Source: an uncultured Candidatus Saccharibacteria bacterium | Lineage (GTDB): Bacteria > Patescibacteriota > Minisyncoccia > Minisyncoccales > 2-12-FULL-40-12 | Length of the DNA: 64,000 nucleotides | Assembly (NCBI GenBank): GCA_964518135.1 | Contig: CAZFEY010000001.1 | Coordinates: 2,856-66,855, forward strand | Reading direction: 5' to 3' | Shown: one piece after another, positions 1 to 64,000 of the stretch | Layout: each line of letters begins with the position of its first letter | How positions within the stretch are numbered: position 1 is the stretch's first letter | Program-made: the position numbers and the translations under genes | Notes under the pieces: model-generated | What the model was told of the DNA's origin: nothing | Databases searched by the model: none | Seen by the model: the letters and a program-made list of their open reading frames with translations, nothing else

Positions 1-47
1 AGTTTTTATTGCCTTAACCAACATTTTCGTTATATCAAGGATTTCTG

Positions 48-80
48 CTACCTGGCGTACCAGGTAGTGAAAGTTCAACT
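48..80. repeat. left boundary of GIY-YIG cassette: 12-bp direct repeat 'ctacctggcgta' (48-59) followed by inverted-repeat arm 'ccaggtagtgaaagttcaac'
   Basis: Same 12-mer recurs at 375-386; 48-67 forms perfect hairpin ctacctgg-cgta-ccaggtag; arm is imperfect inverse of 360-382. Confidence 0.5.
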
Positions 81-352
81 TAATTTTTCAGCTTATTTTC
101 GTAGAAATGTTCTTTCAACGTGCGCTTCAACAATCTAGACCCTTGGTTCGTTTTAAGATATTCTTCTCTACGCTTAGCATCTTTATCGTTAAGATACGCC
201 TCATAATGAATCAACTGCCATGGTCTATGTGATTTTGTTGAAAAATTCAATCCGCGATTATGTTCTAAAAACCGTTCTTTTAACTTGGTAGTATAGCCGA
301 TATACAAATCTAAATAATTTCTACTCGACAAAACGTAAACATAATGAAACAT
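80..352 (-). CDS. small GIY-YIG nuclease-domain protein (90 aa)
   Basis: N-terminal 'YVYVL...YIGYT' GIY-YIG motif; size and sequence typical of stand-alone GIY-YIG catalytic-domain proteins; paralog of 14399..14647. Confidence 0.75.
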   Translation of the reverse strand: MFHYVYVLSSRNYLDLYIGYTTKLKERFLEHNRGLNFSTKSHRPWQLIHYEAYLNDKDAKRREEYLKTNQGSRLLKRTLKEHFYENKLKN

Positions 353-359
353 AATCGCT

Positions 360-386
360 GGTGTCGAATTTCTACTACCTGGCGTA
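360..386. repeat. right boundary of GIY-YIG cassette: inverted-repeat arm 'gtcgaatttctactacctgg' + 12-bp direct repeat 'ctacctggcgta' overlapping rny stop codon
   Basis: Reverse complement 'ccaggtagtagaaattcgac' matches left arm 'ccaggtagtgaaagttcaac' (about 16/20); 12-mer encodes YAR* of RNase Y and is duplicated at 48-59. Confidence 0.5.
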
Positions 387-5553: not shown

Positions 5554-8500
5554 CTAAATCGCGAATCTATTCTGAATGACTCCCGATTTAACATTCATGA
5601 CTTTCGAAGTAAAGATGTGGGAATAAGAGCCGTCGTCATTTTTCTTTTCGATCTTAAGGTAATATTTGCCTGGCGGAACAAGAATATAATATCTTCCATA
5701 TTGATTAGCGACTCTTTTTACCATCTCTTTGTCAACATCGGCATTAAATATTCTTAATATCGCAAATGACAAGGGAAGTCCGGTATCTTTTTCCGATAAA
5801 GTTCCAAAGGTTCTTGTTTTGATATTTAAAGATATAAGCACGCCCAAAAGCATATACAAAAGAACCACGATCAGGTTTGCGCGCTCGGGAGCCAAAAGAA
5901 CGCTTACTATTGCCGAGGCAAAACCAACAACAAATAAAATATCTGCCAACTGCCTAAAAGTAATTTCTGTTTGAGAATAAAGTTTCATCAAATTCTTTTG
6001 CTTTTTGGCAAATTCATTCCAGTCGAACTTTTCTCTATCTAACGGAATGTCTCTCGCGACAACGTCTCCTTTTTCACCCACCTCAACTTCGCCACCAAAA
6101 TAAAGATTACTATATATTTCATCGTTGCTTCTGCCGTAAAGTGCTTTTGATGGGAATTTATAGTGGGTTTTATTGGCTACCATGGTGTATTTACCAGGTT
6201 CTGCCAAAAATCCATACCGACCATCCAAATCAGTAATCGACGTGGTTACCTCCTCGCCTTTTTCGTTCTGTAACATTACATAGGCTGGGTCTAATGGCTG
6301 TTTTGTGATTGAGTCATAAACGGTACCCCAACCTTTGCTCTTACGCTTTAATCCAAACGCAATCATAAGCGATGACAGTAATCTTAGAAGTTGCAAGCCC
6401 CAATTAGCCGGTGAAATCGGTATAAACCCAATTAATCCCAACCCACTCACAATCAATCCAGTCATTGCAATTGCCTTGGCAGTATCCTCTGCTGCGGGAC
6501 TATTTAACCAGCCACGGACAATATCAATAATACCTTTCTGCTCTTCTTCCTCTTCTGGAACTGCTGGCACGCATCTCTCCTCGGTCCATTCTTCTATGGA
6601 AATATATTCTTGTTCGATCTCACACCATTGAGTACCCGGAGGAACACATCTGTCCACCGTCCACTCTTCTTCTGGCATATATCTTTGTTCAACTTCGCAC
6701 CATCTCGCTCCGTCGGTAACACATCTCCTTTCGGTCCAATCTTGTTCTGGTATATACTGCCTTTCTTTCATGCACCACTTAAGAATAGGAGTTATACACC
6801 TTCCTTCGGTCCACTGTTCTATCGGTATGTATTGTTTTTCCGCTCCGCACCATTTGGTGCCCGGGGGAGTACAACGTTCTTCTGTCCAATCTTGCTCTGG
6901 AATAAAATGCTGTTCAAACTCACACCACTTAGCGCCTTCGGGCACGCATCTCTCCTCGGTCCATTCGTCTTGAGGTATAAACCTTTGTTCGTCTTCGCAC
7001 CATACTGTTAATGGCGGAGGGACGCATCTATCAACGCTCCATTCTTCTTCGGGTATGAATTGCTGCTCGGCTTCGCACCAAAGAGTTCCGTCAGGCGCGC
7101 ATCTTTCCTCGGTCCATTCGTCTTGAGGTATAAATTGTTGTTCTTTCTCACACCATTGATTTACCGGCCCTCCACCACCTCCAGGGACATCACACCTTGC
7201 GCTTGTCCATTCTCCTTGAGGTATAAAAGCATTTTCTTTGACGCACCAGGTCATCACCGCAGCTGGGAACCAATTAATGTTATTGCCATTATCTACAAAA
7301 TGAACTGGATCAATCGGCAGAGCCGCTTGGTTAACCGAATTCCCAACGTTCACGAAATCAACATTCCAAGCAGCAGGATTAATATTCCATTGGTCAGCTC
7401 CGGCTCCTCCTGCTCTCTCAAGGTTAATATTGTTTCCAGCCGCTCCAGCAATTTCCCAACTAGCCGGGCTTGTAATTGTTTGAGTGGAGTCTGATTGGAA
7501 AGCCAAAGTTTTGCCCGGTGTCGTGCAGCTAAAATTCCAAAAAGTAGAGTTACCACTGATGGTTGAGGTTTGGGTCGCATCATTAAAGGTAACTGTGTTA
7601 TTGCTATGAGAAAATATTCCATTCTTAGTCCAATTACTACCCAAAGTGATATTTTTACCATCGGCATTAAGATTTGCGGCGGCATCTATTGTTAGACTGC
7701 CAGTTAAAGCATTGGCTCCGGTCAGATTTCCCACCGGAACATATGTTTCAGCTCCGGAAAACTGAATTGAATTATAGGTGGTGGTTGTAACATTAATATT
7801 TCCCGCAGCATTCGTTGCTGAATACTGAACAGTGGAATTAGTTCCAGGAGTCAAAGTGCCATTAACAGTTAAAACTGTTGCTACGGCTCCGGCATTGGCA
7901 AGGTTCAATATGTACCCATTAGAGGCGAGATCCAACGTATTGTTAGCATTAACGGTCATTATGTCCGCAGTCATTGAGGAAGCCAAGGTCAGCTCATTTC
8001 CTGCTCCTCCGCCAATAACTACTGCTCCAATATTTTGCTTAACCGCTGTGGAGTCGGTGTAGTTATTGTCTTCGACTCCATCAAAAGTTAAAGTTCCTCC
8101 TTTAGTGTAGGTAGTGCCTGCGTCTAAAGTAAAGTTGCCGGCATAATTCTGGCTCAAAGCATTGGTGTCAAAAGTACCAGCTGATTGTAAAAAATTTCCA
8201 TCAACATCTAAAGCATTGTTGGTTAATTGTAGGATTCCGGCTCCGGAGTGGGTTAGATGATTGAAAAGGAATCCCGCTCCTACTCCTCCGGAGTCCAGGG
8301 CTTGGGTGCCGGCGGCAGCGCTAAAAGTAACAAGACCCTCTCTTGGAGTAAATGTTCCATTATTATCCCAATTACCGGCCAGAGTAATATTATAATCACC
8401 ACCAAAAACAGCATCTAGGGTAGCGCCGTTATCAATGGTTAAGCTTCCCGTTAAAGCATTTGCGCCAGTATGATTACCTTCTAAAATATAAGTTTCAGCG

Positions 8501-11500
8501 CCAGAAAGTTGTAAGCTACTATAGGGCGTAATGGTAACGGTTATATTTATAGCGCCATTCACTCCTGAATATTGTACCGTAGAGGTGCCAGGATTAAGAG
8601 TCCCGGTTACTCTTAGTACGTGTGCGATTTCTGCAGGGTCAGCCCAAATACCACTAGATCCGCCTGCTAAATTTAAAGTATAGCTACCTACACCTAGATT
8701 TAAGGTAGTGCTAACATCTAAGGAATTCACGGTCATCGAAGAAGCCAATGTAATTTCCTTTCCAACGCCACCCCCAATAATAACCTCTCCGATATCTTGT
8801 TTTACAGCTGTTGAGTCCGTATAAATTGCCGTATCTGTTGCTCCATCAAAAGTTAGAGTTCCGCCTTTGGTATAAGTAGTGTCTGCATCAAGAGTAAAAC
8901 TGCCAGCGTAGTTTTGGTCTAAAGCGTTAGTATTAAAGGTACCTGCCTGAAGGCGAAAATTGCCATCCACATCAAGAGGACTGTTGGCAAGAGTTAACAT
9001 CCCGCCTCCTGTATAATCTATGGTTAGATTCCAAAAAGCGCTTGCTCCAGGGTCTAGGAGTGGAAAGGGCGGAGGAGCGCCGGGATAATCAAAAACAACT
9101 GTATTGTTGCCATGGGTGAAAATAGCTGAATTTGCCCAACCGCTACCACCACCAACATACATATCCTGCCCGTTAGCATTAAATATGCCTGCCGAATTAA
9201 TAAAACCACCATCTATGTCAACCGCATTCGTAATGAGTCTCAATGTTCCATCGCCAGAGTGAGTAAGACCATTAAAAGATTTGCCAGCGCCCACTCCTCC
9301 GGAATTCAAATCTTGAGTTCCAACTCCGGCATTAAAAGTAACAGTATTAGACCTTGGGGTAAATGTTCCGGCATTAGACCAATTACCAGCCAAAGTAATG
9401 TTGTAGTTTTGACCATCAACAGCGTCTAAGGTAGCGCCACTATCAATTGTTAAACTTCCAGTCAAAGCATTGCCGCCCGTAAGATTACCTAAAAGTTCAT
9501 AGGTTTCAGCTCCAGAAAACTGCAAAGAGTTATAAGTCGTAGTAGTAACCTCGATATTGTTGCCTACGATAACTCCGGAATATTTCACCGTGGAAGTACC
9601 CGGCGTAAGAGTACCTATTACGATTAGTGAATCCCCGACCCCATCCCCATGAACAGCAGCCGTAAGAACACCTTGTAAATCTAAGGTGTAGTTATTAGAA
9701 TTTAAATCTAAAACATTGTCTATGTTGATAGTCATCGTATCCACGGTCATACTGGATAGTAAAGTAAGCTGATTGTCTGGAGGGGCGGCGGCGGCGGACA
9801 ACAACCTAACCGTCCCTATGTTTTGTTTTGTGTCATTGGAATCAGTATAGGTTATCCCGAGACCATGATTAAAGGTAACTGTTCCGCCCTTAGTGTAAGT
9901 AGTGTTGGCTAAAAGCTCAACATCGCCAGAAAAAACTTGGCTCAATCCATTAGCATCGAAAGTTCCTCCTTGAAGCGAAAAAGTCCCATCTACATCTAAT
10001 AAGTTGGTGTCAAGTTGTTTAATTCCAGCGTTGCTTAAAGTAAGGTTATAAAAACTACTATTTGGACCGTTGTCTATGGTTTGAGTTCCAGCTGCGGCGT
10101 TGAAGGTAACTGTGCCACTTCCGGGAGTAAAAACCCAATTATTATCCCAATTGCCAGCTAAAGTAATTCCGTAGTTTTGAACGACATCAGCGCTCAAAGT
10201 TGAAACATTATCTATGGTTATATTTCCGGTTAAAGCGTTGGCGCCTGTTAAATTGCCCAATAATACATAAGTCTCGGCGCCAGAAACCTGAAGAGAATTG
10301 TAGGTGGTATTGGTAACTAGCATATTGCCCCCTCCAAAAACCGCTGAATACTTCACCGTGGAGGTTCCGGGAGTAAGGGTTCCGTCAACACGCAGCGAAT
10401 CCCTCTCGGCTGGATGCCCTGGCAGGGGCACTAAAAACACATCTTTTAAATCTAAAACATAACTATTCGAACCTAAATCGAGAGTGTTGTCGGCATCAAT
10501 CAACATTGTGTCCACGGTCATATTAGACGCAAGAGTAATCTTTTTCCCTGCTCCGCCACCGATAACAACGGTCCCAATATTTTGTGTCGCGGCCGTGGAA
10601 TCGGTATAAATCGCAGTATCTGTCGCTCCATCAAAGGTTAAAGCACCTCCTTTGGTATAACCAGTACCCAAATCCAAAGTAAAGCCACCTGCGTAATTTT
10701 GGTTTAGAGCGTTAGCGTTAAAGGTTCCATCCTGGAGACGGAAGTTGCCATCTACATCGAGATTATTGGTATCGAGAGCTATACTTCCACCTGCTCCGCT
10801 AAGATTTATGGTAAGATGCCAAAAAGAACTTGAACCGTTATTTAAGGTGTATACTGCGATTTCTGTACCATTGAATTCAACTGTGCTTGAACCGGGAGTA
10901 AAGGTACCGGAATTAGACCAGTTTCCTGAAAGAGTAGCAGTATAAGTTTCAGCGTTAAAATTTGCGCCGGCCTGGATAGTAACATCGTCAGAAATTAAGT
11001 TACCGCCCGGGGTATAAGTTTTATTCGTCCAGACAATAAAATCAACTCCCGCATCTAATGTTAGATCGCTACCAGCCACCGAAAAAGGAACTGCTAGCCC
11101 GCCTTCGCCAGTAGAAAAATCTGCATTTGTTATTGGCCCCGCTGTTTCATGTCTGGCAGTAACAGTATCAAGGCTGGAAACTGTAAAATCAGCTATGTTT
11201 GTGGTAGTCGTTGCAACAGTAACTATAGCCACATCTTCGCCAGCGCCGCCCGAGTAAAAAGTAATAATATCGCCATCGCTAAAATAATGCTGCATTGTAA
11301 AGGTAATGTTGGCGCCTGCCAATATATCGGATGTTGCTGGCACCAAGCTAGTGGGTAAACCCCCATTTATCGCTATTGTCGTGTCATTTAAATTATCTCC
11401 GCTATTATTAAATACAGTAATGTCTATCTGAAAAAGCCAATTGGTATTATTGTCAGAGTTAGTTGAGGTAATAGCCGTAACGGTTCCACCATTAATACTG

Positions 11501-12726
11501 TTAGAATCTTTAACGTCTACGTATGTAACCGAGACAGATGCGGCAGCGACAACATCTACCTCCCATTGACTTCCTGGCGTAGTACTCCTTAAGACAATTT
11601 GGTTGGCGCCGGCACCTCCAGTTAAAAGAAGATTGGTAATAGTCTGGGTTGTACCATCGGTGAAGGTAATTTGTTTGGCAGCGGTTATAGAAGTAAAGTT
11701 TTCGAATGTCGTAGAGCCAGAGATTGTTGACACCTTGCCACTGTCGTTAAAAGTCACCGAAGGATTTGCTCCATTAAAAGAACCACTCGTAAAAGCCCAA
11801 CTGCCAGATAATGCTATGGTACCGCCTACATTATATGTGGCGCCATTCAAAGTAAAATTCCCTGAAATAGTTAGTACGCTGGGATCGTTGAAGATCCCGC
11901 TAGTCAAATCAACATTACCAGTAACGCTCAATCTGTTGCCGAATACTTCTAAGACATTGTAAGTTCCGCCGGATTGGGTAAAATTACCACCGACAATAAG
12001 GTTTACAGCCACACTCAATCCTCCTCCAGATAAATCAACATTGCCAGTGGTCTCTGTATTCCCAGTACTTGTAAATGTTCCTCCTGCCACACTTAACGAA
12101 CTAGCCGTGATAGCATTACCCCCATCAGAAAAAGCAGCGATGCTGTTGGCACCAGCCATCGCGAAAGCTCCCATACCCGGTATTGCCACCGTCAAAGATA
12201 TTGAGCCGTCATATCCGTCTGTGGCACCCGCGTCGCCCGTAATAGTTAATGATTCTCCAGCTGATCCCCAAGTGCCGAGATTGTCAATGGTGACATTTTT
12301 ATCATTGGTGCTGTTAAAAGTTACTGTGTCTCCAGCGGCTGGGGCGCCATCTGGCAACCAGTTAAGATCATCTGACCAGTTTTCTGTTAATCCTTCACCG
12401 TCCCAAACTTTTGCTTCGGCCTTGACTAAAAAAGGAATAGAGGAAAACAATACCAGAATCAACAAAAATAATGTTCCAAATAAAGAAAGCCAGTGGGTAA
12501 TCTGGGCGTAAGGATTCAGATGCCAACGGTAATACGCAACTGATTTTCGTAATAAGTATCTATGCAAAGGAGCCAACTGCGGAATAGTGGTTTTTTTGGC
12601 AGAGTATGGAATCAGAAAAAGCCATTCGTTGAGCTCTTGGACTTTTTTTGAACGTTCCCTTTTCTCTTTCTCCATTTTAGCGATTCGCCTTTCTTCTTTT
12701 GTTTGAAAAATCCGCCCAAAGGCCAT
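5554..12726 (-). CDS. giant (2390 aa) membrane-anchored surface protein: N-terminal signal-anchor, long parallel beta-helix/autotransporter-like repeat region, 9x 25-aa Cys-pair repeats, C-terminal TM helices with two carboxypeptidase-regulatory-like beta-sandwich domains
   Basis: Repeated 'GNLTGANALTGSLTIDN...NITLAGNW.N.GTFTP...TVTFNA..GTQ' units; tandem WCE.EQ.FIP..EWTEERC.P repeats; 'GTVYDSITKQPLDPAYVMLQNEKGEEVTTSITDLDGRYGF...GKYTMV' CarboxypepD_reg-like; several hydrophobic helices near C-terminus. Confidence 0.8.
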   Translation of the reverse strand: MAFGRIFQTKEERRIAKMEKEKRERSKKVQELNEWLFLIPYSAKKTTIPQLAPLHRYLLRKSVAYYRWHLNPYAQITHWLSLFGTLFLLILVLFSSIPFLVKAEAKVWDGEGLTENWSDDLNWLPDGAPAAGDTVTFNSTNDKNVTIDNLGTWGSAGESLTITGDAGATDGYDGSISLTVAIPGMGAFAMAGANSIAAFSDGGNAITASSLSVAGGTFTSTGNTETTGNVDLSGGGLSVAVNLIVGGNFTQSGGTYNVLEVFGNRLSVTGNVDLTSGIFNDPSVLTISGNFTLNGATYNVGGTIALSGSWAFTSGSFNGANPSVTFNDSGKVSTISGSTTFENFTSITAAKQITFTDGTTQTITNLLLTGGAGANQIVLRSTTPGSQWEVDVVAAASVSVTYVDVKDSNSINGGTVTAITSTNSDNNTNWLFQIDITVFNNSGDNLNDTTIAINGGLPTSLVPATSDILAGANITFTMQHYFSDGDIITFYSGGAGEDVAIVTVATTTTNIADFTVSSLDTVTARHETAGPITNADFSTGEGGLAVPFSVAGSDLTLDAGVDFIVWTNKTYTPGGNLISDDVTIQAGANFNAETYTATLSGNWSNSGTFTPGSSTVEFNGTEIAVYTLNNGSSSFWHLTINLSGAGGSIALDTNNLDVDGNFRLQDGTFNANALNQNYAGGFTLDLGTGYTKGGALTFDGATDTAIYTDSTAATQNIGTVVIGGGAGKKITLASNMTVDTMLIDADNTLDLGSNSYVLDLKDVFLVPLPGHPAERDSLRVDGTLTPGTSTVKYSAVFGGGNMLVTNTTYNSLQVSGAETYVLLGNLTGANALTGNITIDNVSTLSADVVQNYGITLAGNWDNNWVFTPGSGTVTFNAAAGTQTIDNGPNSSFYNLTLSNAGIKQLDTNLLDVDGTFSLQGGTFDANGLSQVFSGDVELLANTTYTKGGTVTFNHGLGITYTDSNDTKQNIGTVRLLSAAAAPPDNQLTLLSSMTVDTMTINIDNVLDLNSNNYTLDLQGVLTAAVHGDGVGDSLIVIGTLTPGTSTVKYSGVIVGNNIEVTTTTYNSLQFSGAETYELLGNLTGGNALTGSLTIDSGATLDAVDGQNYNITLAGNWSNAGTFTPRSNTVTFNAGVGTQDLNSGGVGAGKSFNGLTHSGDGTLRLITNAVDIDGGFINSAGIFNANGQDMYVGGGSGWANSAIFTHGNNTVVFDYPGAPPPFPLLDPGASAFWNLTIDYTGGGMLTLANSPLDVDGNFRLQAGTFNTNALDQNYAGSFTLDADTTYTKGGTLTFDGATDTAIYTDSTAVKQDIGEVIIGGGVGKEITLASSMTVNSLDVSTTLNLGVGSYTLNLAGGSSGIWADPAEIAHVLRVTGTLNPGTSTVQYSGVNGAINITVTITPYSSLQLSGAETYILEGNHTGANALTGSLTIDNGATLDAVFGGDYNITLAGNWDNNGTFTPREGLVTFSAAAGTQALDSGGVGAGFLFNHLTHSGAGILQLTNNALDVDGNFLQSAGTFDTNALSQNYAGNFTLDAGTTYTKGGTLTFDGVEDNNYTDSTAVKQNIGAVVIGGGAGNELTLASSMTADIMTVNANNTLDLASNGYILNLANAGAVATVLTVNGTLTPGTNSTVQYSATNAAGNINVTTTTYNSIQFSGAETYVPVGNLTGANALTGSLTIDAAANLNADGKNITLGSNWTKNGIFSHSNNTVTFNDATQTSTISGNSTFWNFSCTTPGKTLAFQSDSTQTITSPASWEIAGAAGNNINLERAGGAGADQWNINPAAWNVDFVNVGNSVNQAALPIDPVHFVDNGNNINWFPAAVMTWCVKENAFIPQGEWTSARCDVPGGGGGPVNQWCEKEQQFIPQDEWTEERCAPDGTLWCEAEQQFIPEEEWSVDRCVPPPLTVWCEDEQRFIPQDEWTEERCVPEGAKWCEFEQHFIPEQDWTEERCTPPGTKWCGAEKQYIPIEQWTEGRCITPILKWCMKERQYIPEQDWTERRCVTDGARWCEVEQRYMPEEEWTVDRCVPPGTQWCEIEQEYISIEEWTEERCVPAVPEEEEEQKGIIDIVRGWLNSPAAEDTAKAIAMTGLIVSGLGLIGFIPISPANWGLQLLRLLSSLMIAFGLKRKSKGWGTVYDSITKQPLDPAYVMLQNEKGEEVTTSITDLDGRYGFLAEPGKYTMVANKTHYKFPSKALYGRSNDEIYSNLYFGGEVEVGEKGDVVARDIPLDREKFDWNEFAKKQKNLMKLYSQTEITFRQLADILFVVGFASAIVSVLLAPERANLIVVLLYMLLGVLISLNIKTRTFGTLSEKDTGLPLSFAILRIFNADVDKEMVKRVANQYGRYYILVPPGKYYLKIEKKNDDGSYSHIFTSKVMNVKSGVIQNRFAI
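6540..7290. repeat. about 9 diverged tandem about 75-bp repeats (encode 25-aa WCE...ERCVP units on minus strand)
   Basis: Periodic recurrence in protein and in spurious plus-strand ORFs (repeated '...LSSVHSS...'). Confidence 0.7.
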
Positions 12727-13412: not shown

Positions 13413-14126
13413 TTAATTACGGTCTCGAAGAAAATAAATGCCGACATAAGACAAAGGAGTATAAACAGCTCCCATTGCTACCTTATAAAGCCACCAAGTA
13501 ATAATAATGCTTATGAGCGTAGGCGTTGAATACACTCCCGCAAACGCTATTACCATAAAAATTACCGTATCTAGAAATTGCGACCAAAGATTAGAAAGCA
13601 TTGATCTTAACCAGAAAAATTTCACGCCCATTTTTTCTCGCAAAAAGAAAAACGAAAATACATCTTGATATTCTGCAATTAGGAATGCAGCCAAAGAAGC
13701 TACGGCAATACGAACAGAAACACCAAAGACCTGATTATATCCTTCTTTTACCCATTCACCGTCAGCAGACCATGGTAGCGCAATCGAAAGAAGAGAATAA
13801 ACAATAAACAATGCCGTACTGATAAAACCGGCTAAAACAAAAAACTTTGCAGTTTTCTTTCCATAAACTTCTCCAATAACATCTGTCATCAAAAAAACAA
13901 CCGGAAAAGAAAATACAGCCACAGACAAATGAGAACCGAACAAAAATGGCATTATTTTCAACCCCAAAGTATTTGCCGCAAACAAAGAAGTAAGATAAAT
14001 CGCAAGAGCAATAAGAATTTTTTTGAATGATTTTTCAGGAAATTGAAACATAAAAATAAATAATTTAGTTGATAATAAATAAGTTTGTTTTTTCAAATAA
14101 AAAACCGCCTGATAGGGCAGAAACAA
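13413..14126 (-). CDS. YhhQ/VUT-family (queuosine-precursor transporter-like) integral membrane protein
   Basis: 6-7 TM helices, 'FPVVFLMTDVIGEVYGKK' resembles YhhQ/DUF165 signature (F..TD.I.E.YG...A); real start probably later Met. Confidence 0.55.
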   Translation of the reverse strand: MFLPYQAVFYLKKQTYLLSTKLFIFMFQFPEKSFKKILIALAIYLTSLFAANTLGLKIMPFLFGSHLSVAVFSFPVVFLMTDVIGEVYGKKTAKFFVLAGFISTALFIVYSLLSIALPWSADGEWVKEGYNQVFGVSVRIAVASLAAFLIAEYQDVFSFFFLREKMGVKFFWLRSMLSNLWSQFLDTVIFMVIAFAGVYSTPTLISIIITWWLYKVAMGAVYTPLSYVGIYFLRDRN

Positions 14127-14246
14127 ACTAATTCAAAATCTACCCTACGGTCTAAAAGAATGAAACTTCATATACAAACCCAGACCAAGTTTTAATCCTA
14201 TAGTTATGAAGCATATATTTTAGTTGTAGTTAAACATATTTAATCT

Positions 14247-14289
14247 TGATGGACCTAGCCAGAATCGAACTGGCGACTGATTAATGTCC
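14247..14289 (-). pseudogene. tRNA-like 3' fragment (T-arm GCCAG-TTCGATT-CTGGC + acceptor 3' strand TAGGTCC)
   Basis: Reverse complement gives canonical T-arm and acceptor strand but no complete 5' half; lies immediately 3' of tRNA-Ala. Confidence 0.35.
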
Positions 14290-14385
14290 CGACAGTTCTG
14301 GTGGACCCAGGCGGACTCGAACCGCCGTTTCCGCAATGCGAATGCGACGTCTTACCGCTGGACCATGGGCCCGCCAGAACTGTCG
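14290..14385. repeat. perfect 12-bp inverted repeat (cgacagttctgg / ccagaactgtcg) bracketing tRNA-Ala
   Basis: Arms at 14290-14301 and 14374-14385; arms include the CCA end; would form 12-bp leader/trailer stem around the pre-tRNA. Confidence 0.7.
14299..14372 (-). tRNA. tRNA-Ala (anticodon CGC), CCA encoded
   Basis: RC: GGGCCCA-TG-...-TCGCA-TTCGCAT-TGCGG-AAAC-GGCGG-TTCGAGT-CCGCC-TGGGTCC-A-CCA; G3:U70 alanine identity pair present. Confidence 0.85.
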
Positions 14386-14398
14386 AGGATCCTCGTAT

Positions 14399-14647
14399 TT
14401 ATAAATTTTTTGAAATTAATCCTTCGATCGCACGTCTCTTTTTCCAAGATTTAATCTGCAACTCTCTTTCTTTGGCATCTTTTAATAATCTATACTCTTC
14501 TTTATGCACAATTTCCCAGGGAATATATCTTTTCGTAGATTTAACTAGGCCTTTGTTATGTAAGCTAATTCTTATTTCCAAATCTTCACAACTACCGATA
14601 TAAAATGAATTATTTTTCTCAGATTTTAAAATGTATGTATAAAACAT
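14399..14647 (-). CDS. small GIY-YIG nuclease-domain protein (82 aa)
   Basis: 'MFYTYILKSEKNNSFYIGSCEDLEIRISLHNKG' GIY-YIG motif; paralog of 80..352. Confidence 0.75.
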   Translation of the reverse strand: MFYTYILKSEKNNSFYIGSCEDLEIRISLHNKGLVKSTKRYIPWEIVHKEEYRLLKDAKERELQIKSWKKRRAIEGLISKNL

Positions 14648-14715
14648 TTTAAAAAATTTATAAATCGGGACGAATGCGCCGTTCTGCCATTTAACTACAG
14701 GCCCTACTATATATA

Positions 14716-14812
14716 TGTCGGGGTGCCGGGAATTCCCGCCTGCCTATCACTATCGCTTTAGGCGATGGCGGGCAGGGAACCCGAATTACTGACTTTCACC
14801 TACCGTCGCCTT
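14716..14812 (-). other. tRNA-like conserved element (acceptor-like stem + T-arm-like CGGG-TTCCCTG-CCCG); uninterrupted copy of the element that hosts tRNA-Arg at 16795-16945
   Basis: Shares 'GGGTTCCCTGCCCGCCAT...AGGCAGGCGGG' with 16821-16931; contains 'GGTAGGTGAAAGT' similar to GIY-YIG cassette inverted repeat; the spurious ORFs beginning 'MAGREP' are its translation. Confidence 0.35.
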
Positions 14813-14820
14813 ATTTTGTC

Positions 14821-14893
14821 GGGGTACCCAGATTCGAACTGGGGTCACACGAACCCGAATCGTGTATACTACCACTGTACTATACCCCGTATC
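14821..14893 (-). tRNA. tRNA-Pro (anticodon CGG), no encoded CCA
   Basis: RC: CGGGGTA-TA-GTAC..GTAT-A-CACGA-TTCGGGT-TCGTG-TGAC-CCCAG-TTCGAAT-CTGGG-TACCCCG-A; fully Watson-Crick acceptor, U8, G37. Confidence 0.8.
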
Positions 14894-14894
14894 A

Positions 14895-15160
14895 GGCTTA
14901 TGGCGGACGAGGCCGAAGCCAGCGTAATACCGTTATACCACACCCCGAAAAACTCCCCCAGACAAGATAATATGGATTTTGGGACAATCCGCAACCTTCA
15001 ACAAAACAAATCCTCAAGAGCAAGGGATTTTATTGCTTGGGGAACATCCGCAGGCAAATTGCATGGTTCCGCGAAGCGGAAATTTGCCGAGGAACCGAGC
15101 TTGTCCCGCGCTGGCGGGACAGGGCGTATCCCCAAATATAAAATCCTTGAAGCTCCCCCC
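14895..15160. ncRNA. candidate structured non-coding RNA (GC-rich, nested hairpins and a pseudoknot), family unknown
   Basis: GGCAAATT...AATTTGCC 8-bp inverted repeat enclosing CCGC-GAAG-GCGG hairpin; loop GGTTCC pairs with downstream GGAACC; GTCCCGC-GCTG-GCGGGAC hairpin; GC about 48%; no convincing ORF. Confidence 0.3.
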
Positions 15161-16692
15161 TAACTCACCCAATACTTTTTCTTCGTCATCTCATCCTTTT
15201 TTACTATCAATTGTTCTTTGTCTTTCCTAGATTTTTTAACTAAAGACGTTAATTCTTTATCGGACAACTTACCTAGCTTTTCAGTTTCTTTTTTTAAAAA
15301 CGCTTTTTTGTTGTTTTTTGGATCTTCCAAGATAATCCCCAATAAAATATCCAAAATTTGTCCAACTTTCGGTCCTGGTTTCATTTTCAGAATTTTCATA
15401 ACATCATTCCCTGAAACCTTCAGCATTTTTGCCGAAATCGGGTCTTGCGAGACTTTATCAATGATATATTTAAGATGTCTTAATTTGTATGGTTCGGCCT
15501 TGGGAACGCCAGAACCAATTCTATCTGCCATTCTTAATTGCAAAAGTTCTTCCATATTTTCTATTCCTACCTGACGAACCAGCCTGCGCACAGACGACTC
15601 TCCAACCTCGTCCACATTATAATAAAATAGGTGATAACGAACTAGTTTTGTTATTTTCTCAATGTCTTTATTGGAAAATCTAAGACGATCTAGAATCTGA
15701 CGAGCCATTTTGGCCCCGACAATTTCGTGCCCATAAAAAGTTGAATCTGACCCTTCGCCATGCTTAACTCTTGGCTTTGCAATATCGTGCAACAAAGAGG
15801 CTATTCTTACGTTCTTGTTAAAATTTTTCTTTGCGGCAAAGTCGAGCGCCCTCATATTATGCTCATAACAAGAGTATATATGATGTTTATTCTGACCAAT
15901 ATTATAACCCTCTTCAAGTTCTGGCAAGATATGTTTCAAGAGCGAAAGTTCTCTTAACAACTCTATCCCGCCCATTGCACTTTCTGACATTATAATTTTC
16001 GAAAACTCGTCTCTTATTCTTTCTTGCGAAATATACCTAATCAAATCAGAGTTTTCCTTAATGGCTTTGGCCGTTTCATTTTCTATGTTCCAACCCATTG
16101 TGGTCGCAAAACGAACAGCCCTCATCATTCTCAAAGCGTCTTCTGAAAACCTTTCTCTGGGATTTCCAACGGCTCTAATCAGCTTTTGTTGTAAATCTTC
16201 CTGCCCATTAAAAAGATCTACGACCTTAAAACCTAAATCTTGAAGCTTAAAATCTGAATCTTTTTTTGTCGGTGCTTTAAGCTTTAAGCTTCGCGCTTCA
16301 AGGCCTAACGCTATTGCGTTTACTGTAAAATCGCGCCTAGCTAAATCTTCTTCAAGATTTTTAGCAAAACCGATGTTGTCTGGATGGCGCTTGTCCGTGT
16401 ATTTCGCTTCTTTTCGGAAGGTAGTAATTTCAACTTCTTTCAGTGAAACTTTTTTGCTGCCAGTTTGAACTGTTACCGTAAGAAATTTATTTTCACAAAA
16501 ACTATCTGGGAATATCTTTTGTATCTCTTCTGGCTTAGCATCGGTAGTTATGTCCCAATCCTCGGGATCTGCTCCTCGTAAAATATCCCTAACACACCCT
16601 CCTACAACATAGGCACCATATCCGCTTTTATGAAGTTTTTGGATAATATTCTTTATTTCCTTCGGTATTTCTATTTTTACCATTAAAATCAT
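15160..16692 (-). CDS. cca: CCA-adding enzyme / poly(A) polymerase family nucleotidyltransferase with HD domain
   Basis: 'GAYVVGGCVRDILRG...DWDITT' Pol-beta NT motif, 'RDFTVNAIA', HD domain 'LLHDIAKP'. Confidence 0.85.
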   Translation of the reverse strand: MILMVKIEIPKEIKNIIQKLHKSGYGAYVVGGCVRDILRGADPEDWDITTDAKPEEIQKIFPDSFCENKFLTVTVQTGSKKVSLKEVEITTFRKEAKYTDKRHPDNIGFAKNLEEDLARRDFTVNAIALGLEARSLKLKAPTKKDSDFKLQDLGFKVVDLFNGQEDLQQKLIRAVGNPRERFSEDALRMMRAVRFATTMGWNIENETAKAIKENSDLIRYISQERIRDEFSKIIMSESAMGGIELLRELSLLKHILPELEEGYNIGQNKHHIYSCYEHNMRALDFAAKKNFNKNVRIASLLHDIAKPRVKHGEGSDSTFYGHEIVGAKMARQILDRLRFSNKDIEKITKLVRYHLFYYNVDEVGESSVRRLVRQVGIENMEELLQLRMADRIGSGVPKAEPYKLRHLKYIIDKVSQDPISAKMLKVSGNDVMKILKMKPGPKVGQILDILLGIILEDPKNNKKAFLKKETEKLGKLSDKELTSLVKKSRKDKEQLIVKKDEMTKKKYWVS

Positions 16693-16781
16693 TCTATCTT
16701 AAAAATTGATTTTTTCAATCTTTTGAGTTAGGCTTAAAAACAGCATAACGGTTAATATTTCCTAGCAAAATTATCTTATGC

Positions 16782-16950
16782 CCCCGTGGCAAGGCGCCTC
16801 GCTTCGGACGAGAAAATTGAGGGTTCCCTGCCCGCCATATTTGCCTCCATAGTGAAACGGATATCATACATGGCTTCGGACCATGAGTTCCGGGTTCGAA
16901 TCCTGGTGGAGGTACGGCAAGGCAGGCGGGGAGTCCTTTTGGGGGTACGA
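16782..16950 (+). other. degenerate tRNA-Arg-like outer element (acceptor GCCCCCG/TGGGGGT, anticodon-loop CTTCGGA) interrupted by intact tRNA-Arg
   Basis: Outer sequence has anticodon stem-loop CTCG-CTTCGGA-CGAG identical in loop to inner tRNA; halves 'GGGTTCCCTGCCCGCCAT' and 'AGGCAGGCGGG' are contiguous in the 14716-14812 copy. Confidence 0.3.
16843..16914 (+). tRNA. tRNA-Arg (anticodon TCG), no encoded CCA
   Basis: GCCTCCA-TA-GTGA..TCAT-A-CATGG-CTTCGGA-CCATG-AGTT-CCGGG-TTCGAAT-CCTGG-TGGAGGT-A; G1:U72 wobble. Confidence 0.8.
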
Positions 16951-17035
16951 TTATTTATTTTTGAGCGTAGCGAGAAAACATTTATTTTTATCGTAAAATG
17001 ATATATAATCCGAGAAGAATAATCCATATTGCAAG

Positions 17036-17455
17036 ATGAAAAAGATAATCCTAAATATAATTTTATTGTCTTTTATAATCGGCCTACCCTACATTGCTAA
17101 CGCACAACCAGTTGGCTTAGTGCCTTGCGGTAACATTGGCGAACCACCCTGTCAACTCTGCCACATATTTATTCTCTTTAATAACATTATCTCATTCTTG
17201 CTTGTTCCTGGTAATCCCTTTGGGGGATTCCCTGTGGTACTTGCTATCGCTGGACTAATGATATTATGGTCAGGATTCTTATATATAATGAGCTTTGGGG
17301 ACCCTAAGAACCTAATCAAATCAAGAGAAATACTAAAAGCAACGGGCCTTGGATTGTTAATAGTTTATGGCGCTTGGGCTGCTGTTAACACATTGTCATG
17401 GTTCGGCATTATTCCGAATAACTGGTTTACGATTAACTGCCCTATTATTCCTTAA
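17036..17455 (+). CDS. secreted VirB2/TrbC-like pilin-like protein (stand-alone, 139 aa)
   Basis: Sec signal peptide, then hydrophobic helices separated by short polar loop 'SFGDPKNLIKSREILKATG'; paralogous to N-termini of 27978.. and 33753.. proteins. Confidence 0.45.
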   Translation: MKKIILNIILLSFIIGLPYIANAQPVGLVPCGNIGEPPCQLCHIFILFNNIISFLLVPGNPFGGFPVVLAIAGLMILWSGFLYIMSFGDPKNLIKSREILKATGLGLLIVYGAWAAVNTLSWFGIIPNNWFTINCPIIP

Positions 17456-17462
17456 AAAACAA

Positions 17463-17496
17463 CGCGCCCGTAGCTCAATTGGCCCCGCACCCTCCA
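17463..17496 (+). pseudogene. tRNA 5' fragment (acceptor GCGCCCG + D-arm GCTC-AATTGG) directly abutting tRNA-Lys
   Basis: Canonical acceptor/D-arm start without remainder; partial complementary strand 'TAGGCGC' found 3' of tRNA-Lys (17590-17597). Confidence 0.35.
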
Positions 17497-17570
17497 TGCC
17501 CCCATAGCTTAATTGGTAAAGCAGGAACCTCTTAAGTTCAAGAGTCCAGGTTCGAGCCCTGGTGGGGGCA
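17497..17570 (+). tRNA. tRNA-Lys (anticodon CTT), no encoded CCA
   Basis: GCCCCCA-TA-GCTT-AATTGGTA-AAGC-A-GGAAC-CTCTTAA-GTTCA-AGAGT-CCAGG-TTCGAGC-CCTGG-TGGGGGC-A. Confidence 0.8.
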
Positions 17571-17655
17571 TAGAGCGTACGGGGCAAACCTAGGCGCAAT
17601 ACAATAATCAAGTCGAGATAATTAAGGTATTACTGTTAAACAACATACATTATAT

Positions 17656-17922
17656 ATGCTAAGCAACGAGGAAAAAGGAAAGATAATATCAAAACACAAA
17701 ATCCACGAGAAAGACACTGGATCTGCCGAGGTGCAAATCGCTTTACTTTCCGAGGAGATAGATAAGCTTCTTTTGCATCTTAAAAGCCACGCAAAAGATT
17801 TTCATTCAAAGCGGGGTCTTTTGAAAATGGTATCAAGAAGAAGGAAGCTTTTGAGCGTCTTGAAAGAAGAAGACGAAAAAAGATATAATAGTATTATAAA
17901 AAAAGTTGGTCTTAAAAAATAG
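17656..17922 (+). CDS. rpsO: 30S ribosomal protein S15
   Basis: '[50 protein letters not shown]' S15 signature. Confidence 0.9.
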
Positions 17923-18030
17923 CAACCGTTTCGTTGTTTTTTCTGGTGCGATTCTAAAAATAACCCGCCGGTCATCACGAACATTCATTAGTTTTTAAAG
18001 TTTATTCATAGTGATCGGTAGTATCTATTT

Positions 18031-18615
18031 GTGATCATAAAACATTTAGGACAAAGAGTTGGAGTATTTATAGATATTCAAAACCTTTATCATTCTGCTA
18101 AAAATCTTTACCAGTCTAGGGTTAATTTTGAAGAAGTTCTCAAATTCGCCATTGGCGGACGTAGCCTGATAAGGGCTTTTGCTTATGTGGTTAGAACCAA
18201 AACGGGCGAAGAAAGGCCTTTTTTTGACGCGCTAGTGAGTCTCGGCATTGAAACACGTATCCGCGATTTACAAGAGTTTTTTGGCGGTCAAAAAAAAGCC
18301 GACTGGGACGTTGGTATTGTAATTGACGCCATACGAATAGCTCCAAGCGTTGATACTATCGTTCTGGCATCGGGAGATGGAGATTTTATATCTCTCGTTG
18401 AATACTTAAAAAACCAGGGGAAAAGAGTAGAAGTTATTGCTTTCGACAGATCAGCATCAAAAGGATTAAAGGAAATAGCTGATGAATTTATTGATATGGA
18501 AAAAAATACGGATAAATATCTTTTACACGCAAAACGCAATTTGTTTAATCTCAAAATTGGCAAAATTAATATAAGAAAAACTGACCCGAAACCAAAATGG
18601 AAAAATTCAAATTAA
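18031..18615 (+). CDS. NYN-domain (LabA-like/DUF88) putative RNase
   Basis: 'VGVFIDIQNLY' N-terminal Asp motif and 'LASGDGDFISLVEYLKNQGKRVEV' typical of NYN/LabA fold. Confidence 0.65.
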   Translation: MIIKHLGQRVGVFIDIQNLYHSAKNLYQSRVNFEEVLKFAIGGRSLIRAFAYVVRTKTGEERPFFDALVSLGIETRIRDLQEFFGGQKKADWDVGIVIDAIRIAPSVDTIVLASGDGDFISLVEYLKNQGKRVEVIAFDRSASKGLKEIADEFIDMEKNTDKYLLHAKRNLFNLKIGKINIRKTDPKPKWKNSN

Positions 18616-63810: not shown

Positions 63811-63835
63811 AACTATTTATTTAAAAAATTTTTAT

Positions 63836-63960
63836 AGTGGAGGCGGAGGGGTTGAACCCTCGTCCGAAAATTAATTCAGAAATAAATCTACAAACTTAGC
63901 CAGGTTTGTTTTGGAACGAAAAGTATAAAATCTGGCAAAACCCTTTCGTTCTTTGCCTTT
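63836..63960 (-). promoter_or_regulatory. structured 5' leader of infC-rpmI-rplT operon (8-bp hairpin GAACGAAA/TTTCGTTC; tRNA-like T-arm + ...CCTCCA 3' end); possible L20-type autoregulatory leader
   Basis: RC contains GAGGG-TTCAAC-CCCTC T-arm-like hairpin adjacent to CGCCTCCA; no matching 5' acceptor strand, so not a complete tRNA. Confidence 0.3.
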
Positions 63961-64000
63961 GTTTTTGATAGCTCTCCAGGCACTAGAGTTATCTATCTCG

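Follow-up and report, generated by a model that had tools for sequence, protein, structure and literature searches.

A GIY-YIG element with its own tRNA-Ala nested in a tRNA-Ala(CGC) gene of an uncultured patescibacterium: a candidate homing-type insertion

The nested tRNA-Ala locus

The window considered here, i.e., the whole stretch of 64,000 nucleotides that was analysed, comes from an uncultured Candidatus Saccharibacteria bacterium (GTDB lineage Bacteria; Patescibacteriota; Minisyncoccia; Minisyncoccales; 2-12-FULL-40-12; assembly GCA_964518135.1, contig CAZFEY010000001.1, positions 2,856 to 66,855 of the forward strand). Four tRNA genes are recognised in it by ARAGORN. One of them, tRNA-Ala(CGC) at 14299–14372 of the minus strand, lies together with a short open reading frame (ORF) for a GIY-YIG protein in a 384-bp element (14670–14287, minus strand) that splits a second, outer tRNA-Ala(CGC). 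The inner tRNA scores 58.9 bits in Rfam (gathering score 29), and direct reading of the minus strand gives G3:U70, A73 and an encoded CCA at 14301–14299. The complete tRNA-Ala with G3:U70 and CCA described in an earlier, sequence-only reading of this DNA is confirmed, on the minus strand. The sequence recurs at 99–100% identity in five independent assemblies (801 nt covered per contig in three of them, ~565 nt in two), and the arrangement is therefore not an assembly artefact.

Reference loci, designated below by L and a number, were fetched via the adjoining gene of the CCA-adding enzyme (tRNA nucleotidyltransferase, 15160–16692), 80 of them from species-level genomes and 80 from metagenomes. 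The enzymes fetched share 59–74% amino-acid identity with that of the window, no metagenome relative being closer than 74%, and tRNA profiles were built from the orthologous tRNAs of these loci. Nearly all of them have the common order tRNA-Lys(CTT), tRNA-Arg(TCG), enzyme, tRNA-Pro(CGG), tRNA-Ala(CGC), which is conserved across ~160 Parcubacteria/Paceibacteria genomes (window 15160–18615; L006–L165). A T4SS-pilin-like gene is often found between tRNA-Arg and tRNA-Lys, with S15 and a gene for a NYN-domain protein beyond. The wobble base is C in three of the four tRNAs of the cluster (Ala CGC, Pro CGG, Lys CTT) and U in tRNA-Arg (TCG). A 2390-aa ORF (5554–12726, minus strand) is situated close to the tRNA cluster, and a tmRNA gene (63835–64000), which confirms a bacterial origin, is cut by the end of the window.

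The 12-bp inverted repeat previously described around the inner tRNA (14290–14301/14374–14385) is exact and includes the CCA. Around 114 orthologous tRNA-Ala(CGC) genes the longest Watson–Crick repeat between leader and trailer is typically 4–6 nt, and repeats of at least 10 nt occur only in the window (12 nt), L110 (12 nt) and L024 (13 nt), all three being nested loci; since longer repeats are confined to nested loci, the 12-nt repeat cannot be ascribed to chance. No repeat accompanies tRNA-Ala in the relatives in which it lies within 31 nt of tRNA-Pro. The repeat is the stem of the second module of the element (described below), running on into the acceptor stem of the inner tRNA; this stem covaries and could have a role within RNA made from the element.

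The same repeat could be taken as an ordinary pre-tRNA processing stem of the host, the tRNA-like flanks being chance resemblances. Such an origin would agree with the folding of the region, which is much better than that of shuffled sequences (z = -5.2), and with the leader/trailer pairing that extends the acceptor stem. The stem is, however, absent from 111 of the 114 orthologous tRNA-Ala genes, the flanks match a tRNA-Ala-specific profile, and the flanks of other loci rejoin into complete tRNAs, so that this explanation retains next to no credibility. The processing hairpin proposed in the sequence-only reading is not supported as a host feature, the stem being seen only where an element is present.

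The outer fragments are two pieces of a further tRNA-Ala gene, both on the minus strand. The 5' part (14671–14704, GGGCCTGTAGTTAAATGGCAGAACGGCGCATTCG) comprises nucleotides 1–35 and ends after the second anticodon base. Its stretch 14704–14671 matches positions 1–34 of the family profile with E = 6e-6 and 1e-5 (nhmmer, orthologous tRNA-Ala profiles), and 31 of 34 positions are equal to those of the functional tRNA-Ala of L009. The 3' part (14250–14286, CATTAATCAGTCGCCAGTTCGATTCTGGCTAGGTCCA) comprises nucleotides 36–73 with the T-arm and acceptor strand intact, and 14285–14250 matches profile positions 36–71 with E = 3e-3 to 5e-3. The acceptor strands of both pieces pair, G3:U70 included. Thus, among the tRNA-like remnants reported before, the 3' half with its T-arm and acceptor strand is real, but the matching 5' piece had been overlooked.

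The outer tRNA-Ala starts 13 nt past the discriminator base of an outer tRNA-Pro frame (see below). Both genes are present in 117 related loci. In 41 of these, no more than 31 nt separate tRNA-Ala from tRNA-Pro (no more than 7 nt in 35), and the 41 loci contain neither repeat nor fragments. This spacing and this adjacency place the outer pieces in the position of the resident gene. They make up a resident tRNA-Ala(CGC) gene, older than the insertion and split in two at 35/36, in accordance with the earlier suggestion that a tRNA gene already in place had been scarred by recombination or homing. The insertion is located exactly between nucleotides 35 and 36 in the anticodon loop (TTCG^CAT), and its junctions, TTCG/TCCCG and CGGGA/CATT, show no duplication.

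The outer anticodon stem of the window is broken, as its 3' strand TAATC no longer pairs with GCGCA, and no tRNA is called by ARAGORN from the rejoined halves. In the intron mode (0–3000 nt; default and lowered thresholds) the outer tRNA is not called either, with only false positives elsewhere. Halves joined at many arbitrary junctions yield ARAGORN calls of many tRNA identities, and the join test therefore shows no more than the compatibility of the acceptor, D and T arms.

It is improbable that the element is a true intervening sequence, excised from the transcript so that the outer halves, joined or still paired, yield a further working tRNA-Ala. In Patescibacteria tRNAs, 35/36 is a known site of self-splicing group I introns (PMC13011429), the stems covary, and the outer genes of two other copies (L172 and L110) are perfect without the element, while L137 and L024, by eye, keep intact arms. 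Against these points, no group I or group II signal appears even at E ≤ 10, and the element offers no space for a ribozyme core. With the Rfam group I model, there is no match at the gathering threshold in the whole window or at E ≤ 10 in 14000–15200, and this latter scan gives, apart from the tRNAs, chance matches only. No bulge-helix-bulge geometry was seen by inspection of the junctions, both of which lie at the base of perfect stems without two 3-nt bulges 4 bp apart. The favoured fold closes the modules separately, and the ends are not paired together. Finally, the outer genes are decayed in the window, L173, L175, L179, L006 and L155, which indicates that they are not under selection.

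Two covarying stem-loop modules and their copies

The 384-bp element is built of two tandem stem-loop modules closed by the same stem. Module 1 includes TCCCG, an AT-rich leader, the GIY-YIG ORF and CGAGGA; module 2 includes TCCTCG, a 10-nt arm, the intact tRNA-Ala, the complementary arm and CGGGA (all on the minus strand). The left terminus TCCCG (14666–14670), which is the 5' strand of the module-1 closing stem, is invariant or compensated in 12 copies. It is followed by the AT-rich leader ATTTATAAATTTTTTAAA (14648–14665, direct reading), a possible promoter or translation start region, and a similar leader stands after TCCCG in all ORF-bearing copies. The ORF (14399–14647; 82 aa, stop codon included) has the same strand as the tRNA and encodes the catalytic domain only. 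The GIY-YIG gene, the second in the window, had been described as starting next to the tRNA. It is indeed close, but its end rather than its start lies 26 nt upstream of the tRNA, and it is more than a neighbour, being one of the two modules of the element.

CGAGGA (14390–14395) represents the 3' strand of the module-1 closing stem; its A at position 3 would bulge, and this position varies freely (A or T) among copies. TCCTCG (14384–14389) represents the 5' strand of the module-2 closing stem, where T at position 4 would bulge. Together these two form the 12-bp palindrome CGAGGATCCTCG, which is present as claimed earlier but at 14384–14395 instead of 14383–14394. Next come the module-2 5' arm ACAGTTCTGG (14374–14383; with CG it makes up the repeat 14374–14385), the inner tRNA-Ala (14299–14372) as cargo, the 3' arm CCAGAACTGT (14292–14301), whose first three bases are the CCA of the tRNA, and the right terminus CGGGA (14287–14291; direct reading, comparison of copies). 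Without the ORF module, the complementarity of terminus plus arm would reach 16 bp (GTCCCG+ACAGTTCTGG versus CCAGAACTGTCGGGAC).

Other copies were found via the coding loci of GIY-YIG homologues (174 homologues detected, 12 protein clusters sampled). Seven of the 12 clusters are situated in tRNA-Ala genes, one in tRNA-Lys and four outside tRNA genes, each of them at G^CA, and the same architecture is present in 12 other loci. The recurrent order (5'–3') is the outer tRNA up to G, TCCCG, the AT-rich leader with an 80–94-aa GIY-YIG ORF, CG-N-GGATCC-N-CG, arm, complete inner tRNA, complementary arm, CGGGA and the outer tRNA from CA. The host gene is tRNA-Ala(CGC) in the window, L175, L176 and L179/L180, tRNA-Ala(TGC) in L172, L173/L174, L182 and L185, and tRNA-Lys(CTT), entered in the D-stem at GAG^CA, in L183. 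At the non-tRNA sites (L166, L169, L177, L181) a small hairpin replaces the arm-tRNA-arm part, and L110 is an ORF-less derivative with a gutted module 1.

In all 12 tabulated copies G precedes the element and CA follows it. The arms differ in sequence among copies yet remain complementary, and the inner tRNA matches the identity of the host whenever the host is a tRNA gene. Removal of the element in silico restores a tRNA-Ala with the right anticodon (ARAGORN) in L172, L173, L175 and L110, and a tRNA-Pro in L155. In L177 (region 700–1200) the element lies within a 27-codon copy of the atpG start (MESPQNIKKRLKSVNNIGQITK, then the element, then AMELIP and a stop) directly followed by the complete atpG, where the corresponding site is GCT and not the GCA of the interrupted copy. 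Similarly, in L181 (700–1130) it lies in a 5' fragment of an unnamed Cys-rich gene, and the complete gene follows directly. In some copies inner and outer tRNA are nearly identical, for example over the 3' halves (L176), over the D-arm and the 5' strand of the anticodon stem (L024) or over the anticodon arm (L183); in others they differ. The cargo may travel with the element, be copied from the local gene at insertion, or be homogenised later by gene conversion.

For the covariation count, termini, 12-mer and arms were aligned from 12 copies and two alternative structures were compared. In the two-tandem-hairpin model, TCCCG pairs with CGNGGA, and TCCNCG plus arm pairs with the opposite arm plus CGGGA; 96.3% of cells are paired, 10 pairs are changed on both sides, and none of 500 shuffles is as good. 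In the stem of TCCCG and CGNGGA, 100% of cells are paired and one C-G to U-A change is compensatory, and the pairing of TCCTCG with CGGGA includes a compensatory C-G to U-A change in L173 and, by eye, also in L185. All 8 arm pairs counted (those nearest the closing stem) are changed on both sides across the 12 copies, with 91.7% of cells paired, as illustrated by ACAGTTCT/AGAACTGT in the window, ATGGCAAA/TTTGCCAT in L173 and GTGACTCT/AGAGTCAC in L110. The alternative model, in which the termini pair mutually and the 12-mer pairs with itself, gives a terminus mismatch and a G-U pair, and 6 of 12 copies are unpaired at the variable positions of the 12-mer.

There are only two terminus substitutions (C to T on the left in L110, G to A on the right in L173), and each is compensated inside its own module. 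Because each half of the palindrome compensates with its own terminus, the palindrome is the abutment of two stem-loop modules. Its role as a self-pairing or symmetric protein site was considered and rejected, as the variable positions 3 and 10 do not covary. The covariation shows selection for pairing.

Mobility, re-invasion and nested genes lacking the ORF

Among the 161 loci fetched by synteny, the GIY-YIG ORF is present at the Ala site in one, the window itself, and missing in the other 160; it was found at the same site again only via protein look-ups (L175, L179/L180). From TCCCG through the ORF to CGAGGAT, L172 and L173 are ~99% identical (3 differences), whereas their arms, both tRNAs and flanks share ~87% identity or less, so the ORF module moved recently and on its own. 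Presence or absence at one site together with recent lateral movement is the behaviour expected of homing genes, and the ORF displays both.

In L182 (600–1200) three GIY-YIG ORFs stand in a row, and ahead of the outer 5' half are the 12-mer and arm belonging to an older copy. Here the inner tRNA-Ala(TGC) of one element was invaded by a later one, in the manner of a Russian doll. In an ordering of the loci based on their CCA-adding enzymes, the nested L075, L024, L110 and L137 are scattered, and the members of one small group (L023, window, L006, L086, L163) have different arm families; both observations indicate repeated invasions. The outer genes range from the intact ones of L172 and L110 to those of L175 with a 5-nt deletion, L173 with two stem mismatches and L179 with hairpins inserted into both outer halves. 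Such a range is expected if insertion frees the outer gene from selection.

Fragments of a tRNA of the same isotype occur beside intact tRNAs in ~25 of 161 loci, according to the profiles, and their break points cluster at positions 33–37. Nested elements lacking the ORF share YCCCG...CGGGR-type termini but differ in their arms. The arm is CCCCGTTAGAAAT in the Ala loci L024 and L006 as well as, without change, in the Pro locus L155, and it is CCCGCCAAAATTT in L137 and L075. As regards a MITE/REPIN-like nature (short non-autonomous hairpin copies at many places of a genome), ORF-less copies such as L110, L024, L137 and L155 exist, and the window contains one mini hairpin. The latter is a solo hairpin GTCCCGCGCTGGCGGGAC at 15103–15120, with termini as in the element (expected by chance 0.02). 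It is located within a 210-nt hairpin-rich spacer between the gene of the CCA-adding enzyme and the outer tRNA-Pro; in many relatives, L009 and L022 among them, this spacer is only 5–20 nt.

All four tRNAs of the window are nested, the Arg and Lys cases being based mainly on reading by eye. tRNA-Pro(CGG) (14889–14818) is nested in an outer tRNA-Pro (14718–14947, minus strand), whose 5' half (14947–14913; E = 1.5e-4 versus the Pro profile) ends at TTCGG and whose 3' part ends at the discriminator base 14718. The T-loop of this outer tRNA holds, between TTC and AATT, an extra empty GC-rich hairpin (CCTGCCCGCC-22 nt-GGCAGGCGGG). Arms CCTGCCCGCC/GGCAGGCGGG also bracket the inner tRNA-Arg(TCG) (16843–16915), and the 16-mer GGGTTCCCTGCCCGCC occurs exactly twice in the window. 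The outer frame around this tRNA is tRNA-Arg-like (16780–16947, plus strand) and is interrupted in its T-loop (TTC^GAGT). Its D-arm is shortened, it possesses a separate anticodon loop, CTTCGGA, and its profile score is weak (E = 0.07). tRNA-Lys(CTT) (17497–17571, plus strand) is preceded by a 19-nt tRNA 5' start GCGCCCGTAGCTCAATTGG plus CCCCG and followed by CGGGG plus TAGGCGCA. Its surroundings (17464–17598) look like a much-decayed nesting at a G^CA site in what is left of a second tRNA-Lys, with a weak profile score of the outer frame (E = 0.6). In L019 the leader is similar to that before tRNA-Lys of the window, and L183, as mentioned, has a GIY-YIG element in tRNA-Lys.

In other loci (L109, L158, L007, L104) nuclease-type ORFs likewise separate a complete tRNA from a fragment of a like tRNA. 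At the Pro locus, the proteins of L109 (3204–3860) and L158 (4562–4915) contain the Pfam 'homing endonuclease associated repeat' (2e-12). The 248-aa helix-turn-helix ORF at the Lys locus of L007 (1461–2207), L104 (96–839) and L106 appeared LAGLIDADG-like by eye; this assignment was dropped, as Pfam, NCBIfam and PDB searches did not confirm it.

Module 2, the hairpin with its tRNA, could also be made by another process, the GIY-YIG ORF being a later parasite of such hairpins and not the splitting agent. This is unlikely, yet three observations speak in its favour: nested tRNAs with different arms and no ORF exist (L024 and L006, L137 and L075, L155), module 1 is ~99% identical between L172 and L173 whose module 2 and tRNAs differ, and the other three tRNAs of the window are nested without any ORF. 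On the other side, the ORF-less families share the YCCCG...CGGGR termini, and L110 keeps a gutted module 1. Composite elements at non-tRNA sites also possess the module-2 hairpin and sit at G^CA, which means that the modules travel together at least some of the time. Homing endonuclease genes pass through a cycle of gain, decay and loss, and a cycle of this kind is what would be expected of the ORF.

The fragments could, alternatively, be att-type scars of integrase islands or decayed tandem duplications unrelated to the nuclease. Integrases use the anticodon and T loops of tRNA genes, and a single 5' or 3' fragment is found beside a full tRNA in L016, L050, L075, L118 and L152. But no recombinase gene is present in or beside the element, in which the GIY-YIG gene is the only ORF; direct repeats are missing at the junction, the pieces are nested and not in tandem, and conserved inverted termini bound the insertion. 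This origin is accordingly given very little weight. Several further candidates were rejected. A GIY-YIG cassette inserted later and bounded by a 20-nt inverted repeat does not agree with the finding of the same ORF-plus-tRNA module in other genomes. For a lox-like recombinase site (arms plus spacer, circular form), an IS200/IS605-type insertion 3' of a tetranucleotide, an integron attC and a P-nucleotide-type hairpin footprint, there was no supporting gene or junction signature.

The nuclease, the homing interpretation and known systems

The 82-aa protein matches Pfam GIY-YIG (PF01541) with 2.1e-14 (cut-off 22.6 bits). It has the signature of the superfamily (Tyr of GIY, Tyr-x-Gly, Arg, Glu), and Y5, Y16, G18, R26, H30, N31 and E62 are invariant in 25 homologues. 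The whole protein corresponds to the catalytic domain and has no separate DNA-binding domain of the classical I-TevI/Seg type. The score against the NCBIfam 'group I intron endonuclease' is 20.8 bits, below the cut-off of 56. The nearest solved structures, both weak matches, are the UPF0213 proteins 1ZG2 (E = 0.037) and 1YWL (E = 0.079), and the UPF0213 family is grouped with the structure-selective nuclease Slx1 (PMC7017083). A more distant GIY-YIG gene is present at 83–351 of the window (minus strand, Pfam 3e-13). It is flanked by a ~20-nt direct repeat, ACGCCAGGTAG[T/C]AGAAAT[T/C]C (region 38–377, minus strand), which copies the last codons and stop of an upstream 509-aa ORF, and a hairpin CTACCTGG/CCAGGTAG is located downstream.

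The favoured explanation, to which a probability of about two in three is assigned, is a homing-type insertion at G35^C36 of tRNA-Ala(CGC) that carries a replacement for the tRNA it destroyed. The GIY-YIG protein would break DNA at or near G^CA, and the element would spread by repair of the break from an occupied allele, the outer halves serving as homology arms. Insertion destroyed the resident tRNA-Ala, the flanking halves of which are now decaying, and the module-2 tRNA would supply the lost function, so that the insertion could be tolerated. Transcription probably enters from the promoter of the resident tRNA. At the RNA level the covarying stems could keep the inner tRNA from mispairing with the near-identical outer halves. 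By analogy with the rRNA insertions discussed below, the stems may also be RNase III-type sites releasing mRNA and pre-tRNA.

Several points weigh against this explanation. L024, L006, L137 and L155 (Pro) are nested and ORF-less, with other arms and no trace of an ORF, and this nesting and the separate movement of module 1 leave room for the ORF as a secondary invader. Target cleavage and homing are attributed to the GIY-YIG protein from its sequence, and a protein of 82 aa without a DNA-binding domain leaves the recognition of G^CA unaccounted for. The covariation cannot distinguish RNA structure from single-stranded-DNA structure. As the inner tRNA keeps the anticodon loop of the target with its G^CA site, it is not obviously immune, and it was re-invaded in L182. 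The matching inner tRNAs (Ala CGC, Ala TGC, Lys, Pro) demand many independent captures or an unnamed mechanism.

A broader proposal is more tentative and stands somewhat below even odds: the copies could represent a new class of mobile elements of Patescibacteria, in which structure-defined stem-loop modules, mobilised by a minimal Slx1/YhbQ-like GIY-YIG nuclease without a DNA-binding domain, invade essential structured-RNA genes at G^CA and carry a spare of the destroyed tRNA. Elements of this tentative class would be defined by YCCCG...CGGGR closing stems and by hypervariable but always complementary arms.

The element behaves like a homing endonuclease gene, and its closest known counterparts are the non-intron GIY-YIG insertions in rRNA genes of the candidate phyla radiation (CPR). 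Among the insertion sequences of these rRNA genes are some with a GIY-YIG gene that belong to neither the group I nor the group II introns, and most insertion sequences there are located at the tops or bases of stem-loops (PMC11270868). The phylum is the same, and in both cases a GIY-YIG ORF is found in a non-intron insertion inside a structured-RNA gene. Unlike those insertions, the element described here has a tRNA host split in the anticodon, a complete replacement tRNA, a two-hairpin architecture and a G^CA site. The rRNA tolerates cutting and the anticodon loop does not, which would explain the need for a spare in the tRNA version.

In phage T4, a free-standing GIY-YIG homing endonuclease, SegB, is encoded in a tRNA gene cluster and reportedly promotes inheritance of its own gene and of neighbouring tRNA genes (PMC2330249). 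The likeness consists in a GIY-YIG gene among tRNA genes; SegB differs in being intergenic and having a DNA-binding part, and it is not known to split a tRNA gene or to leave nested halves. Anticodon loops of bacterial tRNAs may also contain group I introns, some of which carry a homing endonuclease gene, and in Patescibacteria position 35/36 is among their sites (PMC13011429). Here the phylum, the loop, the inter-nucleotide position and, for some of those introns, the homing endonuclease are common to both. Those introns are self-splicing and their host tRNA is functional, whereas the present element has no ribozyme, its host gene dies and a spare copy is supplied.

In strategy, the element comes closest to organellar endonuclease ORFs: free-standing ones of fungal mitochondria reportedly enter the end of a gene (atp6 in Allomyces) and bring a replacement for the displaced part. 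The substitute for a disrupted part is a common feature, and L177 provides one for the 5' end of atpG; the Allomyces case concerns partial tandem replacement in an organellar protein gene, unlike the complete copy of a bacterial tRNA nested in a hairpin. In Archaea, disrupted and fragmentary tRNA genes are attributed to mobile elements in the Caldiarchaeum model (PMC3293823). That model resembles the window in tRNA fragments beside a functional copy and in the link to a mobile element; it differs in being archaeal and in involving a recombinase-type element as well as introns that the tRNA endonuclease removes, neither of which is the case here. In the literature searched, no description was found of a tRNA nested in a tRNA or of the present two-hairpin element.

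Under the homing interpretation, supply of a spare copy would be a third way for a selfish element to reside inside an essential RNA gene, besides self-splicing and trimming from a fragmentation-tolerant rRNA. The combination of an 82-aa nuclease without a recognition domain, a reproducible G^CA site and covarying stems offers a compact and testable model of DNA targeting that is guided by structure or assisted by RNA. If the broader proposal is true, serial re-invasion would lead to continual replacement of tRNA genes, a 'Russian-doll' turnover, and would explain why all four tRNAs of the cluster are nested. The tRNA genes of reduced genomes may thus be repeatedly replaced by element-borne copies, which bears on tRNA phylogeny, on annotation (fragments and nested genes miscalled or missed) and on horizontal transfer into the core translation genes.

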